Origin: Octopus sinensis
Lineage: Eukaryota
Length of the DNA: 64,000 nucleotides
Assembly (NCBI RefSeq): GCF_006345805.1
Contig: NC_043022.1
Span: forward strand, 9,486,001 to 9,550,000
Direction of reading: 5' to 3'
In this document: piece by piece, positions 9,349 through 27,161 of the stretch
How the letters are laid out: each line of letters begins with the position of its first letter
Numbering within the stretch: position 1 is the first letter of the stretch
Notes under the pieces: generated by a model
What the model was told of the DNA's origin: nothing
The model's input: only the letters and a program-made list of their open reading frames with translations
Database searches by the model: none
Made by a program: the position numbers and the translations under genes

Positions 9349-9855
9349 CTGTTCATGTTGTTGTTGTTGAATTTATTATTTTACTTGTTTCAGTTATTTG
9401 ATTGTGGCCATGCTAGAGCACCGCCTTAAGGGATTTTAGTTGAACAAATCAACCCCAGGACTTATTCTTTGTAAGCCCTCTACTTATCCTATTGGTCTCT
9501 TTTGCCAAACCACTAGGTTATGGGGATGTAAACACATCAACCCCAGTTGTCAAGAAGTGCTAGGGGTAAACACAGACGTTTACTTGTTTCAGTTATTTGA
9601 TTGTGGCCATGCTAGAGCACTGCCTTAAGGGATTTTAGTTAAACAAATCAACTCCAGGACTTATTCTTTGTAAGCCCTGTACTTATCCTATTGGTCTCTT
9701 TTGCTGAACCACTAGGTTATGGGGATGTAAACACATCAACCCCAGTTGTCAAGCACTACTAGGGGCAAACGCAGACACACACACACAAATATATACATAA
9801 ATGCTGTTTGTGGGTGACATGACATAGATTCCACAACTTAAAAATAAAAGGTTGT

Positions 9856-9917
9856 TTCTCTATTGCAATTTCGATGTTAGTAACCTATTAAGGGTCCCAT
9901 TTGTCTCTTCAGGAGAA
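9856..9917 (-). ncRNA. Type I hammerhead ribozyme (inverted partner of 10256-10317)
   Basis: Minus strand reads ttctc-CTGAAGA-gac...atc-GAAA-ttgcaa-TA-gagaa. Confidence 0.62.
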
Positions 9918-10255
9918 TATCCTTATCAGATAGAAATTGATACAAGATCTTAACCTTTGTGTATTTTATGATAACATGTTTGGCCATTGATATATTCATA
10001 AATAATTATTGATATATTTATGATATATCCTCCTTAATGTATTATTACATTACTTTTTAATTATTTAATTTTCCCCACTCATATCCGGTGCTTTGCCGTG
10101 GCTCGAATTTACTGGTCTTTCCTCATAAACGCTGTACATGACATTTGAATTCAGAATTTGAATGTGTAGATAGAGGTTGACACATTATTCTTGCCGGTCG
10201 GGATACATGTAAGCCCCAAAGTAAGGTCTTGCATCAATTTCTATCTATAGGAATA

Positions 10256-10317
10256 TTCTCCTGAAGAGACAAATGGAACCTTTAATAGGTTCCTAACGTT
10301 GAAATTGCAATAGAGAA
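10256..10317 (+). ncRNA. Type I hammerhead ribozyme
   Basis: ttctc-CTGAAGA-gac...gtt-GAAA-ttgcaa-TA-gagaa. Confidence 0.72.
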
Positions 10318-10693
10318 TTAACCTTTTATTTTCAAGTTGTGGATTCTATATGTCATGTTGCTTGCAGATAGCATTTATTGTGAGGAGATATGATATGAGT
10401 GATAATAGTGGCTTTATAGTGGTTTTTGATTGCTATTTCTAAACATGTAAGGGTTTTTGAAACCTCTTAGTTATAATTATGACTTGTTCATAATTATAAA
10501 CACTCTTCTTATATATATATAGAATGGTTGTATACTGTCAATCTAACAAGAACGTGACAGTAGGGGGTACACCACCGCTGTATAGCCCTAGGGAGCATCG
10601 AACGCCTCCTGATGGCTTTGACACATTTTCTCCCCTGTGTCCTTATATACATATACGAAGGGGAGACAAACACCCCCGGTCTGCCGAACTGCA

Positions 10694-10740
10694 TCTAGGG
10701 ACACACGTGTTTCAGGATCGTTGTCCTTCATCGGCCTAGA
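10694..10740 (-). ncRNA. Type I minimal hammerhead ribozyme (inverted copy)
   Basis: Minus strand reads tctagg-CCGATGA-agga(caacga)tcct-GAAA-cacgtgtg-TC-cctaga. Confidence 0.78.
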
Positions 10741-11201
10741 GTAGCGACACCGGTCAGCTGGTGATATTTGCCTCGACTCGTAATTGCATATATCTATATC
10801 AGTGAAGTCTATTCCTGATTATCAAAATAAGAAATATTGAATTTCTAAATCTCTCGTAGAGACATGTACTTGGTGGGGGCGATAGAATGGTTGTATACTG
10901 TCAATCTAACAAGAAAGTTCTTGTTAGATTGACAGTATACAACCATTCTATCGCCCCACCACCGTACATGTCTCTACGAGAGATTTAGAAATTCAATATT
11001 TCTTATTTTGATAATCAGTGAATAGACTTCACTGAATATAGATATATGCAATACGAAGTCGAGGCAAATATCACCAGCCGACCTATTTTTTTTTGGAGTC
11101 GTTATTCTGGTGTGTTGGTTTCGAGTGCGTCATTGTGAAGAGGTTGTGAGTTCGAGTTCGTTGCTGGAGGACGTGGTGAAATTTATTTGGAGACTTTGAA
11201 A

Positions 11202-12412
11202 ATGCAAGACCAGATGTATGCGAGAGCAGCAGGCAGAGGCGTGGTTGCGAGTGAACTAGAAATGGAAGAAGTGGTAGTCGAGAAGAAGACTTTAGAAAAA
11301 TATTTCGACAGTTTGAAGAGGGAGGGTGACTGCGTGAGAGTCACACCGTCCGAAGAAGAAGAAAACAATGTGGAGAAACGTATGATAATGTACAGGACAT
11401 GGTGTGTGACATCAAGAAAAATAGAAGTGGCAGAGACGGAAGAAATAGAGAAATGTCTGCAAGGTATTGAGGGTGAACCTACATTTTTCAACAGAGGAAG
11501 AAAGTATGCCACAGTGGTGGTACACTTTAAAAATGAAAATGAAGCAAGAAAGAATGCGACAAGAATTCTGAAATCGGAAAGTTGGACTTTATTACCTAGT
11601 TACTGTGGAAAAAGGGCAGTCAGAATAAGAATTAGTCGGATTTCGCCCGAACTTAACATGGAGAGGATATTAGCGGCAGTAGTTTTCAACTGCAAGGAAA
11701 GTGTGGAGGTGGTGAAGGTGGAAAAGTCAACAGAAGTTAAGTGGTGGGGATATGCGGTACAGGTTCTGGCACATATAACCGTGCCAGACCTATACAACAT
11801 CCCGGAGGAGTTGGTCTTCCCTTGAGACCGCTTAGAGGGTCGGGTGGTAGAGGGAAGACCTCCAGTTTGTTATAATTGCAAATTAAGAGGCCACATGAAG
11901 GATGTATGCCCGCTGGAGAAAACGATAACACCGGAGGCTGTAACGAAGGAGTGTAAAGATACGTGTGTGGAGGAGGGAGAAGTGCAGGAGGAACGAAAGC
12001 AGTGGAGGCGCAAACAGAGAGCAGCTAATTGAGGATGTGAAGAAGAACGTTTAAGTGCAGAGGATGAAAGAACAAAAGATATAGGAAGAGAACAAGGGTG
12101 GAATCACCACCGAAAGTTCTAAAAAGAAAAAAATCAAAAGCAAGATAACAGAAGAAAAAGAAGAGAGACAGTGCAAAGAAAAGGACGAACAAGACAAAGA
12201 CAGAGGTAAACCTAGAATGGAGAAAAAAAGTGAGAGAACAGTTGGATGCTTGTAAAAAGGGAAAAAGACCTGTAGGAAAATACCTGAAAGTATTCATGTT
12301 GTACGTGAAAGACACAGAAGTGGAAAAAAGACTTACAGGTAGGAAAGGATTGATTAGGGTTAAATTACACACAAAACTGCATGATGACGATATGAAAGGG
12401 TATTGTAGATAA
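11202..12412 (+). pseudogene. Disrupted Gag/ORF1-like gene (CCHC zinc knuckle), non-LTR retrotransposon ORF1 type
   Basis: ORFs 11187-11825 and 11844-12032 are in the same frame, separated by one TGA. They contain VVEGRPPVCYNCKLRGHMKDVCP (CX2CX4HX4C). A frameshifted Lys/Glu-rich tail runs to 12412. No RT or endonuclease follows. Confidence 0.7.
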
Positions 12413-12790
12413 AGGAACATTTACTAAATGAAAAAGTATGTTTGATCAGGTTTATTTAACGTATTATGTATGTTATGACAATTTGCCAAATGTGATAGAC
12501 CAGATGGAATTAACAAAGTACATTACGACGAACGTCCAACAACTGGAATTTATGTAATTGTAAAATTGTAACATTGTAAATTGTAAAATGTAAAATTGTA
12601 TTTTAAACGGAACTGCGAGTTGGGGGGTTCGTAAGCCGTTCCATCTAACTCATTACACATAATTCATCTTCATTTCATATTTTATTTTTTACTTATGTAC
12701 CCCACGTCCCGTCTTGTAATGTCCCCTCTGCATTCGGGCCATCGTGCCCATAATAAAGATATAATATCACCAGCAGACCGTGTCTGCTAC

Positions 12791-12835
12791 TCTAGGCCGA
12801 TGAAGGACAACGATCCTGAAACACGTGTCCCTAGA
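12791..12835 (+). ncRNA. Type I minimal hammerhead ribozyme (U4C core variant)
   Basis: tctagg-CCGATGA-agga(caacga)tcct-GAAA-cacgtg-TC-cctaga: stems I and II pair, stem III is a palindrome, cleavage triplet GUC. Confidence 0.8.
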
Positions 12836-13056
12836 TGCAGTTCTGGCAGCCGGGGTGTTTGTCTCCCCTTCGTAAATGTATATAAGGACACAGGGGAAAA
12901 TGTGTCAAAGCCATCAGGAGGTTTCGATGCTTCCTAGGGCTATACAGCGGTGGGGTACCCCCTACTGTCACGTTCTTGTTAGATTGACAGTATACAACCA
13001 TTCTATCGCCCCGCCACCGTACATGTCTCTACGAGAGATTTAGAAATTCAATATTT

Positions 13057-13096
<40 letters not shown>

Positions 13097-13285: not shown

Positions 13286-14230
13286 ATAGGAGAAGGAAAG
13301 ATCCAGAGAAGGGAAGACAGAGGAAAAAAATCGCCAACGGTACACACGAGGTCACATTTTGGAGAGGAATGACCACATTTCTTAGCAGTAAGACCATAGC
13401 AGATCTACATCTAGCACAAGGGTTGTCCACATAGTGGTCAGCCCTCTCGTATGTATATAATACAATTTACTGAACTTTCAGATTTTAATATGCTAGACCA
13501 CTGGTGTTAAATTGATGTTAATTAAATTAATATCCAATTTCTCACCCTCATTTTAAATTTATATATATATATAATATATATGTGTGTGTGTGTGTGTGTG
13601 CATATATATATATATATGTATCTATATGTGATAGGCTTCTTTCAGTTTCTGTCTATCAAGTCCACTCACAAAGCTTTGGTTGGTCCAAAGTTATAGTAGA
13701 AGATACTTGCCCAAGGTACCATGCAGTCAGGCTGAACCCGGGACTGTGTGGTTGGGAAGCAAGCTTCTTACCACACTGCCATGTCTGAGCCTCCACAATC
13801 ATTTGTCCTGGGTTCAGTCCTACTGTTTGGTACTTTGGGTGTCTTCTACCATAGCTCCAGACTGACCAGAACCTTCTGAGTTGATTTGGTAGATAGAAAA
13901 CTGAAAGAAGCCTGTTGTATATATATCTCGATATTTAGCAGAAGCGGCAAAGTGACTCAAGGGCCAAGACTTTTGTCTGTTACCTCTTCATCATGAATCT
14001 ATTATCATCATTTAACATCCGTTTTCCATGCTGGTATGTGTTGGATGGCTTGGCAGAAACTGGCAAAGCCAGAAGCCGGAACCAGGTTCAATAGTCTGTT
14101 TTGGCCCGATTTCTACAGCTGGACTCCCTTCCTAATGCCAACCATACCACAGAGTGTACTGGGTGCTTTTTACATGGCACCAGTACGAGTCAAACCCCTC
14201 TCTCTCTCTCTCTATCTATATATATATATA

Positions 14231-14903
14231 TGTATGTATAATGCCTTCTGGCATGTATGTATAATGCCCTCTATATATAAATTAATATGTTCAATAAGAA
14301 ATAATTATTTTCGAAATTTTTTCTCTTATGAGGTTTTTACGCTATCTACCTGACAATTTCTTGTTAAGTTTTCCTTATTAAGTAGTTGTCCTTAATTGCT
14401 AAATTTTTATTCCGAAAAAAACTTTTCCTCTCCCGAAATGCAATTCGTAAAAGTTTGCCATTTATCCGGATGTAATATATGTAAACTCACCCATGTGCTT
14501 CGTTGATGTTGAGCAGTTAGCTGATCGGCTTAAGCGGGGCAGGGTCGTTGTTTATTTATAATACATTCAGGCCTGCTGATGAGTACGTAAGTATGAAATC
14601 ACTGTGATACAGGTCTATATTTTTTTAAATGTCTTACTTTGAAAAATTGCATTCGGTGGGATTAGTAATATTTTTGGTAGAAATGACTAATTGTCCCTCT
14701 TAGCGTTTGGCATGTATGTATAATGCCTTCTGGCATGTATGTATAATGCCTTCTGGCATGTATGTATAATGCCCTCTATATATAAATTAATATGTTCAAT
14801 AAGAAATAATTATTTTCGAAATTTTTTCACTTATGAGGTTTTTACGCTATCTACCTGACAATTTCTTGTTAAGTTTTCCTTATTAAGTAGTTGTCCTTAA
14901 TTG

Positions 14904-14906
<3 letters not shown>
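14231..14906 (+). mobile_element. Partial-tandem retrozyme-like repeat, period 505 bp
   Basis: ~170-bp direct repeat (gccctctata at 14266 and 14771) with a hammerhead between the copies, flanked by (TA)n. Confidence 0.7.
14570..14615 (+). ncRNA. Type I hammerhead ribozyme
   Basis: ggcctg-CTGATGA-gtac(gtaa)gtat-GAAA-tcac(t)gtga-TA-caggtc. Confidence 0.8.
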
Positions 14907-14942
<36 letters not shown>

Positions 14943-24149: not shown

Positions 24150-24438
24150 TTAGTGGTCAACTCAATGTGACACTCCCGTAAGGGAATTACACCACCGCCA
24201 TTTAGCCCTAGGAAACATTGACGTCTCCTGTCGGCTTTGACACAATTTCTGTGTCCTTATATTTGCAAAGGAGAGGCAATGACCCCCACAAGCCAGGACA
24301 AGGCACCTGAAGACATATGTTTCTGAGTGTATTGCTCATCGTCAGTTCAGGGTAGCCTGCCTCACTCGCTGAGATGACTGCAGCCTTGACACAGAAAATG
24401 TGTCAAAGCCAACAGGAGACGTCGATGTTTCCTAGGGT
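24150..24438 (-). mobile_element. Diverged relative of the 10521-13060 hammerhead repeat, with short inverted arm
   Basis: Shares tacaccaccgc...tagccctagg..catcg..cctcctg..ggctttgacaca. ~24205-24255 is inverted at ~24388-24437. Confidence 0.7.
24306..24351 (-). ncRNA. Type I minimal hammerhead ribozyme (canonical core)
   Basis: Minus strand reads cctgaa-CTGACGA-tgag(caataca)ctca-GAAA-catatg-TC-ttcagg. Confidence 0.82.
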
Positions 24439-27161
24439 CCATATAAGATTTTTGGGGGTTCACATAATAAAATAGCAAATTGGTAATTCACAATAGTATT
24501 TTAAGGGCCTCTGAAAATTTTTTTAATTTAGGGTGACCCTATCAGTGCAGGTGTCCCTTAAAAGTACCCAGTCCACCCTGTAAGGTGGTTGGTGTTCAGA
24601 AGGGTATCCTGCTGTAAAATCCTTGCCAAAATTGACCTCACCTGTGCTTTGTGTCATGTAAAAAGCACTACTGATCTTGCCTGCGCATGTGCCACGTTAA
24701 AAGCACTAAGTCCACCTTGCTGAGTGGTTGGTGTTAGGAAGGGCATCCAGCAGTAAAAGTCATGCCAAAACAGTCACAGAGGTCTGGTGCAGGCTTTTGC
24801 CTGGTTAGCTCTTGTGAAACCCACTCATGCTAGCAATGAAGGCAGATGTTAAACAATGATGATGATGATGTATGTATTGGTATGTATGGCAAGAAACAGG
24901 TTTCTTTCTCTTACATTTCACATAGTCCAACCTACACAATGTGTGAAAAACAAAATAGGTATTTTGAAAGAAGTTTCACTAGTTTTAAACATTGAATGTC
25001 TATGGGGGTCCACGTGAATAAAATAGTAATGAAAGGGGTCCATAGATAAAATATGGTTGTGAACCCTTGCTATAAACATTATACTATATACATGGTACCG
25101 TATGATATTCTTGCTTGGTTAAGCTATACACATAACAACCAATAACAAGAGTGTGTCGGTATAATACTTAATTTTGCTTCATTCAGCTACATACTGTGAG
25201 GGAGAATACGACCGACCCTCCAACGTCTGTCTCCTTTCCCACTTAAACAGGAAATCCCTTTATCTGCCGACTAGCTCACTTCTAGCTAGCCTGCAGTGAA
25301 GTTCCTGTTTACAGTTCATCTACAATCGTTGGGCAGTGCCCTACAATATATTTTAAGAACTTCAAGTGGGTTAATAGGCGTAAAGCAGACTCTGTATTAA
25401 GTTTAAACTGTTAAATACAATTTAGTTCTTTACTTTTCATAGTTTGATTTATATTTCAAGTAGGTTTTTAAGCTGCTTCCAGAAAACTGGAAAATCCAGG
25501 AATCTGAGCCATTTCTGGTCTGAAGCTTGTCAGATAATTGATTTGGTACAGTATCACATAGTCTACAAAAACATAGTCTTCTTTAGGACCTATTGTTTCT
25601 GTATACCAAACTTCAACAGTACCCATTCACACTGCCACTAACTCTTCTTAATATTTTGCTTTTTGTTTACTATCAACCTGTCTTCATCATATTCTTTTTT
25701 TTTTATTTGTTTCAGTCATTTTGACTGTGGCCATGCTGGAGCATTGCCTTTAGTCGAGCAAATCGACCCCAGGACTTATTCTTTGTAATCCTAGTACTTA
25801 TTCTATCGGTTTCTTTTGCCAAACTGCTAAGTTATGGGGATGTAAACACACCAGCATCAGTTGTCAAGTGATGTTGGGGAGACAAACACAGACACATAAA
25901 CATATACACACACGTACATATACATATATATATATATTTTGTTTTTCCATTCCTGAGCATTATACTAATACATCTGTTGGTTTTGTACACCACCTGTCTT
26001 CATCTTTTGTTTTTTTCGTAAACTCTCCCTATATATATATATATATATATATACAGCAGGCTTCTTTCAGTTTCCATCTTTGGTCTGCCCGAGGCTATAG
26101 TAGAGGACACTTGTCCAAGGCGCCACGCAGTGGGACTGAACCCAGAACCATGTGGTTGGTAAGCAAGCTACTTACCACACAGCCGCTCCTGCGCCTATAC
26201 ATACTCTTTTACTCTTTTACTTGTTTCAATCATTTGACTGTGGTCATGCTGGAGCACCGCCTTCAGTCGAGCAAATCGACCCCGAGACTTATTCTTTGTA
26301 AACCCAGTACTTATTCTATCGGTCTCTTTTGCCGAACCGCTAAGTGACGGGGACGTAAACACACCAGCATCGGTTGTCAAGCAATGCTAGGGAGACAAAC
26401 AGACACAAACACATACACACACATACATATATACGACAGGCTTCTTTCAGTTTCCGTCTACCAAATCCACTCACAAGTTATTGGTCGGCCCGGGGCTATA
26501 GCAGAAGACACTTGCCCAAGATGCCACACAGTGGGACTGAACCCGGAACCATGTGGTTGGTTAGCAAGCTACTTACCACACAGCCACTCCTGCGCCTACA
26601 TATGTACAAAATTCTAATAGTTCATTTCTTATTTATATCAGTCACATATACTGTTATCCATCATTATAATTTTTACCAGTTTTATTATTACTATTGTGTG
26701 AGAGAACAGCGCATGCCATCACAGTGACACTGGGGTAAAATATACAAAGCCCAGTAAACCCATCATGACTACCCATCTGTTAAGGGTAAACCGGGCACAT
26801 GCATCACAACCATATGTGCATGACATGGTGATCTGATATCAAAATAAATAGTGCATGACTTTGCAGGTGCGGCCCAGTTAGGATTTTCTCCAGGTCGAGT
26901 AGCCCATCCCGCTCAAAAGGTCCCTGAATTAGGGTTGTTTAAGGATATTGAATGAAACATCCATGTTACCAAGGGAGAATTCTCCAAGCCCCAAAGAACT
27001 CTCAACAAATGGCTATAATGCTCCCCCACTACTTCTGTCCATGATCAGAGATACACATACTGTCAGCCACCATGGAACATGCTCAACTGGTTATGGTCAA
27101 ACAACTGACAAGCAAATCTGTGGTATTGAGCAGAATATTTACTGCAACACATCTTTTATAC

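Follow-up and report, generated by a model that had tools for sequence, protein, structure and literature searches.

An ORF1-only, LINE-derived element at a homologous site of hammerhead retrozymes in Octopus sinensis

How does a protein-coding cassette come to lie within a small non-coding ribozyme repeat, a short distance in front of the ribozyme itself? The question is raised by a locus in a stretch of 64,000 nucleotides from Octopus sinensis (NCBI RefSeq assembly GCF_006345805.1, contig NC_043022.1, positions 9,486,001 to 9,550,000 of the forward strand), referred to below as the window and numbered from its first letter. An empty 363-bp hammerhead unit with a 37-bp repeat of the unit start occupies 10519–10918 on the minus strand and faces a plus-strand unit that is divided by a cassette of 1679 bp (11084–12762, plus strand); the outer ends of both lie in (TA)n. 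The first-pass annotation had described the uninterrupted unit, the divided unit and the 17-bp repeats on either side of the cassette, all of which was reproduced, and had offered two readings: an element with open reading frame 1 only (ORF1-only) that targets a ribozyme retroelement and may use the ribozyme to form its own 3' end, or a protein-coding retrozyme. The answer to which our analysis points, and which is considered probable, is the repeated, targeted insertion of an ORF1-only element, derived from a long interspersed nuclear element (LINE), at one homologous retrozyme site with borrowed enzymes.

The left part of the plus-strand unit (10917–11083) ends in the 5' copy of the 17-bp repeat (11067–11083), which is read as part target duplication and part element-borne leader. 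The 3' copy (12763–12779), host-type and predicted to form the 5' strand of an extended helix I, differs from it by one mismatch, and the corresponding empty target site of 17 bp is found in the minus-strand arm at 10752–10768. A type I hammerhead motif follows on the plus strand (12791–12835, predicted cleavage after 12829), its core starting 34 nt past the cassette end, where about 30 nt had been estimated; it is the only same-strand hammerhead adjoining the cassette. The right part of the unit with its partial tandem (12780–13061, plus strand) stops at a recurrent end, unit position 92, beyond which (TA)n sets in. The empty minus-strand arm, an inverted arm of a Penelope-type insertion in (TA)n, has its own type I motif at 10694–10740, detected by motif scan; the two arms are 94–95% identical by BLAST, and their right parts 97.7% over aligned columns. 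The cassette has a T-rich 5' start and its own 3' tail without poly(A), and the AATAAA annotated near its end is located at 12752–12757 within the conserved part of that tail.

This arrangement recurs throughout the genome. Out of 251 candidate cassette copies 40 were scored, giving a set of 40 loci; of these, 30 are bordered by the 363-bp site on one or both outer sides, three have a related site termed beta, and seven lie elsewhere; two of the 30 on-site loci are 100% identical and probably represent one locus assembled twice. Copies at unrelated sites had been named in advance as the sign of chance nesting; they exist in the minority just given, and chance nesting is not borne out. For older subfamilies, retrieved with a diverged copy, 20 of 20 further 3' junctions adjoin hammerhead units (6 alpha-type, 2 beta and 12 gamma), a figure that excludes known loci, 3'-truncated matches and one further locus, and that includes two junctions read by eye and one with an interrupted motif. 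A census of exact tail matches, read by eye and overlapping the other sets, yielded 81 matches, of which 39 immediately precede a hammerhead unit, 20 lead into the next array element and 22 lie elsewhere; the last letter of the search pattern drops many young copies of the window type. The target families (alpha, beta/epsilon, gamma and delta) are homologous yet diverged, with a mean column identity of 60%, and the cassette occupies a homologous position in at least four related retrozyme families: the junction lies 28–37 nt 5' of the core across them, in the strand that forms the 5' side of a long predicted helix I extension. The chance of a core 25–40 nt past a given point is below 1/1000 per junction, as estimated from the motif density of the window (5 motifs in 64 kb, both strands). 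A weak motif is common to the left flanks of alpha, gamma and delta, and near-sister cassettes are found in different target families, namely beta (locus L072) and alpha (L073). As an observation in its own right, one ORF1-only copy (L249, G000:C7:27338600-27340300) ends 6 nt 5' of a full match to U2 small nuclear RNA (162.8 bits).

At seven filled loci, empty sister units are 96–99.6% identical to the filled unit, from which it follows that filling came after unit integration. Cassettes that are 98–99.5% identical to each other are found in units of differing haplotype, and one haplotype contains more than one cassette subfamily. Among eight arrays of stacked cassettes, four have members that are 86–94% alike, yet each of these is 93–99% like copies elsewhere, which is the pattern expected from sequential insertion; two further arrays are uniform, and the direction of stacking is mixed, the 5' member looking younger in four arrays and older in two, with two uninformative. 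A plain target-site duplication was rejected as an explanation of the 17-bp repeat, since the 3' part of its 5' copy tracks the cassette subfamily and not the host unit: it often carries subfamily-specific letters, the 3' repeat carries host letters, and this combination suggests annealing of an RNA leader to the target. Off-target cassette copies end at their own tail without unit sequence, and none of the copies examined ends at the ribozyme cleavage site, so that a ribozyme-made 3' end of the cassette is unsupported. Of the first reading in the annotation, the targeting of a ribozyme retroelement was upheld and broadened to several families, and the use of the ribozyme for 3'-end formation was dropped.

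Both window arms contain a type I hammerhead with the core CCGAUGA (a U4C variant), a palindromic helix III and a GUC site; the U4C variant has been described as reduced in vitro and sufficient in vivo in a viroid (PMC3088659). Rfam gave no hammerhead above threshold in the unit (a sister copy reached 17.1 bits at best, against a gathering score of 34), and the call consequently rests on motif scanning and covariation. The only Rfam matches in the region are microRNA-like; they arise from (TA)n and the inverted junction and were set aside. In 10 related units 95.5% of cells pair, and 14 of 16 pairs, the 3-8 core pair among them, show compensatory changes; this level was reached in 0 of 500 shuffles, a control inflated by the relatedness of the 10 units; six slid controls also fall far below. 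The five motifs of the window compare with none in 20 shuffles. The gamma family displays U3-A8 covariation in the core, a variant with natural precedent (PMC4209133). By fold, then, the 363-bp unit carries a type I hammerhead whose self-cleavage is predicted from sequence.

As a repeat, the unit is multicopy (2002 candidates, of which 40 were scored, those being 93–95% identical), and its empty arm holds no stop-to-stop frame above 79 aa. At 30 unit loci examined it forms partial tandems, mostly with an inverted 5'-truncated arm, and its ends recur at positions 37 or 92, mostly in (TA)n. It is a short, non-coding, multicopy tandem element of the non-LTR (long terminal repeat) retrozyme kind, present mostly as partial tandems, and it has the structure of Penelope-type mobilisation, with partial tandem, inverted truncated arm, fixed ends and microsatellite targets. 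Metazoan retrozymes match it in size and ribozyme type (PMC7229834; bioRxiv 10.64898/2026.07.22.740005), and the insertion structure of Penelope-like elements matches that of the unit (bioRxiv 10.1101/2021.04.23.441226). Assembled contigs from 4 of 24 runs (three of them guessed to be RNA, three organisms) contain unit and cassette sequence and run across the empty site, and are uninformative on transcription, strand or circles.

The cassette is one copy of a genome-wide family with several subfamilies (29 aligned copies, 82–99% identical) and a single ORF per copy. An ORF1-like CCHC protein had been annotated as its sole coding content, which holds for the family; in the window itself ORF1 (11202–12557, plus strand) is broken by a stop at 11823–11825 and by frameshifts further downstream, and it is intact, with 436–454 aa, in 11 other natural copies. 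Among these 11 copies (55 pairs) the ratio of nonsynonymous to synonymous substitution rates (dN/dS) is 0.06–0.36 over residues 1–237, with dS up to ~2 between distant subfamilies, and 0.09–0.81 over the C-terminal part, one pair being undefined. Low ratios at high dS indicate that the protein is maintained, and by this measure ORF1 is kept under purifying selection. Its predicted layout comprises two RRM-like domains, a CCHC knuckle, a charged linker and a C-terminal domain, and ORF1 is predicted to be an RNA-binding protein. The structure model is of modest quality (mean predicted local distance difference test score 54); Foldseek and VIA-align match it to RRM proteins (E ~5e-4, Z 7–8.5), which speaks for a common fold only. 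Pfam returned for ORF1 only a weak zinc knuckle (CX2CX4HX4C, 11868–11909, plus strand; PF00098, E 0.0046, under the curated cut-off), and a word-seeded protein search one homologue, from Octopus bimaculoides, with 36% identity. Judged by its single ORF homologous to LINE ORF1, the lack of an ORF2 and the selection on the protein, the cassette classes as an ORF1-only non-autonomous LINE. A poly(A) tail is a feature of HAL1; it is absent at the cassette 3' junctions examined, and the cassette is therefore not a HAL1 element proper. Other ORF1-only families (one of 1375 bp, one with a 472-aa frame) were encountered at L063 (4480–8600), L205 and L206, where they share tails or targets, which suggests a radiation of half-LINEs. 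A long-tailed cassette copy adjoins a region resembling the gag/pol of an LTR retrotransposon at L078 and L083.

Where could the missing enzymes come from? Residues 5–236 of ORF1 are mostly 33–37% identical to the ORF1 of an abundant element with apurinic-type endonuclease (APE) and reverse transcriptase (RT); beyond residue 268 no match was obtained in the autonomous loci. ORF2 of this autonomous element contains the domains APE (PF03372), RVT_1 (PF00078) and zf-RVT (PF13966), and among PDB entries it matches human L1 ORF2p best (E 3e-46; R2, E 4e-11). By these matches the element belongs to the L1 group, and it probably belongs to the Tx1 clade, an assignment drawn from architecture and targeting and not from a tree. 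The autonomous family has its own hammerhead association: in 30 loci, 14 of 29 parsed 3' ends adjoin a different hammerhead unit of 562 bp (whose atypical hammerhead the strict motif scanner does not detect), 3 of 29 are internal to arrays and 12 of 29 lie at other sites. Insertion occurs 87 nt 5' of the core of the 562-bp unit, at the base of a predicted hairpin, and an 18-bp repeat was present in 5 of 5 5' junctions. A Tx1-type target preference, set at more than 20% of flanks (PMC4494074), is exceeded both by the 30 of 40 cassette loci and by the 14 of 29 autonomous ends.

The tails of the two kinds of element overlap in part. The long-tailed cassette subfamily has its 3' tail in common with the autonomous element, and the short tail of the window type was seen only on ORF1-type copies wherever upstream DNA was read, which was the case for part of the 81 short-tail ends. 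The autonomous-type tail has ~19,100 exact copies genome-wide, many followed by a recurring repeat, and the only alpha, beta or gamma cores that it precedes are those of the two L064 arms. These ~19,100 copies are probably a high-copy family resembling short interspersed nuclear elements (SINEs) and mobilised by the same LINE group. Further autonomous subfamilies go into other repeats, and ones with other fixed targets were seen at L197-L201, L203, L207, L211 and L216. At L081 (695–8495) a chimera joins the 5' part of the cassette, at the hammerhead site, to another ORF1 fragment and two ORF2 copies; it possibly arose through template switching, and was rejected as a full-length autonomous parent because the cassette 5' part is joined to a different ORF1 and ORF2.

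From these elements a sequence of events can be proposed. The hammerhead unit would spread alone by a Penelope-type enzyme, as the partial-tandem and inverted copies observed in (TA)n. The cassette would be transcribed, probably as a co-transcript from the unit, so that its RNA starts with a target-like leader of ~17–20 nt, and the ORF1 protein would coat this RNA in cis. A borrowed ORF2 would then nick the unit in the long hammerhead-closing helix, on its 5' strand, and target-primed reverse transcription would begin at the cassette 3' tail, using the APE and RT of an L1-group (probably Tx1) element. Annealing of the leader to the target would account for the observed junctions, with a ~17-bp repeat that is host-type on the 3' side and often subfamily-type on the 5' side. 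In the filled units the ribozyme domain is left whole and the target is regenerated, so that further copies stack head to tail. At one or two loci, finally, composite RNA appears to have been copied by the Penelope-type route. As to what selects the site, we lean towards the endonuclease of an autonomous partner over guidance by the cassette's own ORF1 or RNA.

A number of observations weigh against this scheme of targeted insertion with borrowed enzymes. Exact-pattern searches of the alpha, beta and gamma sites turned up no autonomous element, and the short tail of the window cassette was seen on no autonomous element, so that the trans partner is a candidate only. Among the 61 terminal junctions of the exact-tail census 22 are not at hammerheads, the long-tailed subfamily, nested among alpha-targeting copies, uses non-hammerhead sites, and the other autonomous subfamilies that account for the 12 ends mentioned above use other sites. 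Two of the eight arrays hold neighbours that are 99–99.5% identical and could stem from local duplication, and the identity of cassettes is weakly correlated with that of their flanks (Spearman 0.20, one truncated flank distorting the value). L064, the clear case, is an inverted pair of units filled on both sides by one and the same cassette (99.5% identity between its two copies, 98.8% between the unit arms); one of these arms is 5'-truncated inside ORF1 and has no left flank, and the arms end at the two recurrent unit ends. L169, a fragment, consists of the last 70 nt of a cassette joined to unit fragments; these two loci are best read as composite RNA copied by a Penelope-type route.

Both exceptions are what one would expect if the unit and cassette of 2.05 kb replicated together as a protein-coding retrozyme, freed by two hammerheads, possibly circular and copied by a Penelope-type RT, and a same-strand hammerhead does lie upstream at a few loci (L027, L063). 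As the main mode this second reading of the annotation is very unlikely, and it was abandoned as such: the window has a single same-strand hammerhead, so that two flanking hammerheads inherited with the cassette had to be rejected there; flanks and cassette are, L064 and L169 apart, largely decoupled; sister units are empty at the seven loci compared; near-identical cassettes occur in different haplotypes and in different unit families; and off-target cassettes lack any unit sequence. Chance nesting or an assembly artefact deserves next to no credence, even if inverted repeats adjoining microsatellites are hard to assemble, as the same junctions are found at dozens of loci on many contigs, reversed-pattern controls gave zero, and a core at such spacing is rarely expected from the density in the window. 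A more serious, if still doubtful, variant of the preferred scheme retains the chemistry of target-primed reverse transcription and lets the ORF1 protein or the RNA leader, not the endonuclease, choose the site. In its favour are the facts that the position is kept while the target sequence diverges, that near-sister cassettes enter the beta and alpha families, that the numerous autonomous-type tails precede the relevant cores only at L064, and that ORF1 is under strong selection, with residues past 268 unmatched in the autonomous loci. It is countered by the site specificity of the autonomous family itself, which uses a hairpin-rich site of another hammerhead unit with a similar 17–18 bp repeat, by the weak left-flank motif of alpha, gamma and delta, which an endonuclease could read, and by the chance that a partner carrying another tail went unnoticed. 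A tentative combination of the two would have the cassette ORF1 or leader recognise the hammerhead domain and redirect a borrowed LINE enzyme to one and the same structural position while the ribozyme families diverge, the composite sometimes riding the Penelope pathway as a protein-coding retrozyme.

The window holds further repeats of related interest. Just left of the cassette locus, a different and older type I hammerhead repeat forms an inverted pair (9797–9959, minus strand, and 10217–10378, plus strand) with a CUGAAGA core and a UA site. A third hammerhead motif is found at ~14569–14620 on the plus strand; the 363-bp unit also has a diverged relative at ~24190–24440, with a minus-strand motif of its own. 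Common interspersed repeats form short tandem duplications at 9380–9776 (199-bp period) and 14230–14915 (505-bp period).

Retrozymes were long called satellites. In this context it is relevant that the legend of Fig. 3 in PMC4494074 has unnamed satellites among Tx1 targets, which may bear on precedence, and that a repeat paper on O. vulgaris gives L1-Tx1, in the part consulted here, only as a count (PMC13282606). The annotation had regarded the arrangement as not previously described, in agreement with our literature search, which yielded no report of hammerhead retrozymes as targets of a LINE or an ORF1-only element (Repbase, Dfam and subscription papers lay outside the search). ORF1-only LINEs and the targeting of other repeats by Tx1 are already known; it is the targeting of retrozymes that was not found in print. 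With it, hammerhead retrozymes would join the target classes of site-specific LINEs, and a parasitism on three levels would be at hand, its levels being a Penelope-type driver, the retrozyme, and a passenger with ORF1 only, dependent on a second enzyme unrelated to the first. The site specificity of APE-type elements is usually credited to the endonuclease (PMC4494074). Here an endonuclease-less cassette keeps one position across targets that are ~60% alike, with the partner not found at the site, which renders the role of ORF1 in an ORF1-only element testable; if ORF1 or RNA did guide insertion, this would offer retrotransposon-based gene insertion a retargeting principle worth attention.

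Among known systems, the octopus units resemble metazoan non-LTR retrozymes and the pseudo-LTRs of Penelope in their non-coding unit of 150–450 bp, type I hammerhead and palindromic helix III (PMC7229834, PMC4209133), in the partial tandem with inverted 5'-truncated arm and the (TA)n targets (bioRxiv 10.1101/2021.04.23.441226), and, for gamma, in the U3-A8 core covariation (PMC4209133). They are unlike known metazoan retrozymes in that they host a coding element, occur mostly as dispersed partial tandems instead of long arrays, and have a U4C core in alpha. R2 and the short internally deleted elements (SIDEs) of R2/R1 provide a parallel in site-specific non-autonomous passengers, a co-transcribed target and a ribozyme nearby (PMC3414825); R2, however, carries its own 5' ribozyme resembling that of hepatitis delta virus and the SIDEs are non-coding, whereas in octopus the ribozyme belongs to the target and its use by the cassette is unsupported. 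ORF1-only LINEs are represented by HAL1 (L1 clade), HeT-A (Jockey clade) and Ag-Sponge (CR1 clade), and no Tx1-derived case is among those given in the passage on them in PMC5786205. Like these, the cassette has one ORF1 protein under selection, no ORF2 and a dependence on an autonomous LINE; it departs from them in its repeat-specific target within a ribozyme retroelement, the absence of poly(A), and an RRM-RRM-CCHC layout with an extra C-terminal part. A further comparison is with the Tx1 clade, with targets such as Tx1D (for Tx1L), U2 (Keno), microsatellites (Kibi/Koshi) and Mariner-N4 (Tx1-Mar and SINEU) (PMC4494074). The likeness extends to an APE and RT relative, multicopy repeats as targets, tandem insertions, non-autonomous passengers sharing the target (PMC4494074), and the cassette copy beside a U2 gene, the target class of Keno. 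What sets the octopus cassette apart from these Tx1-clade examples is that its target is a hammerhead retrozyme, entered at a position that stays constant across diverged families.

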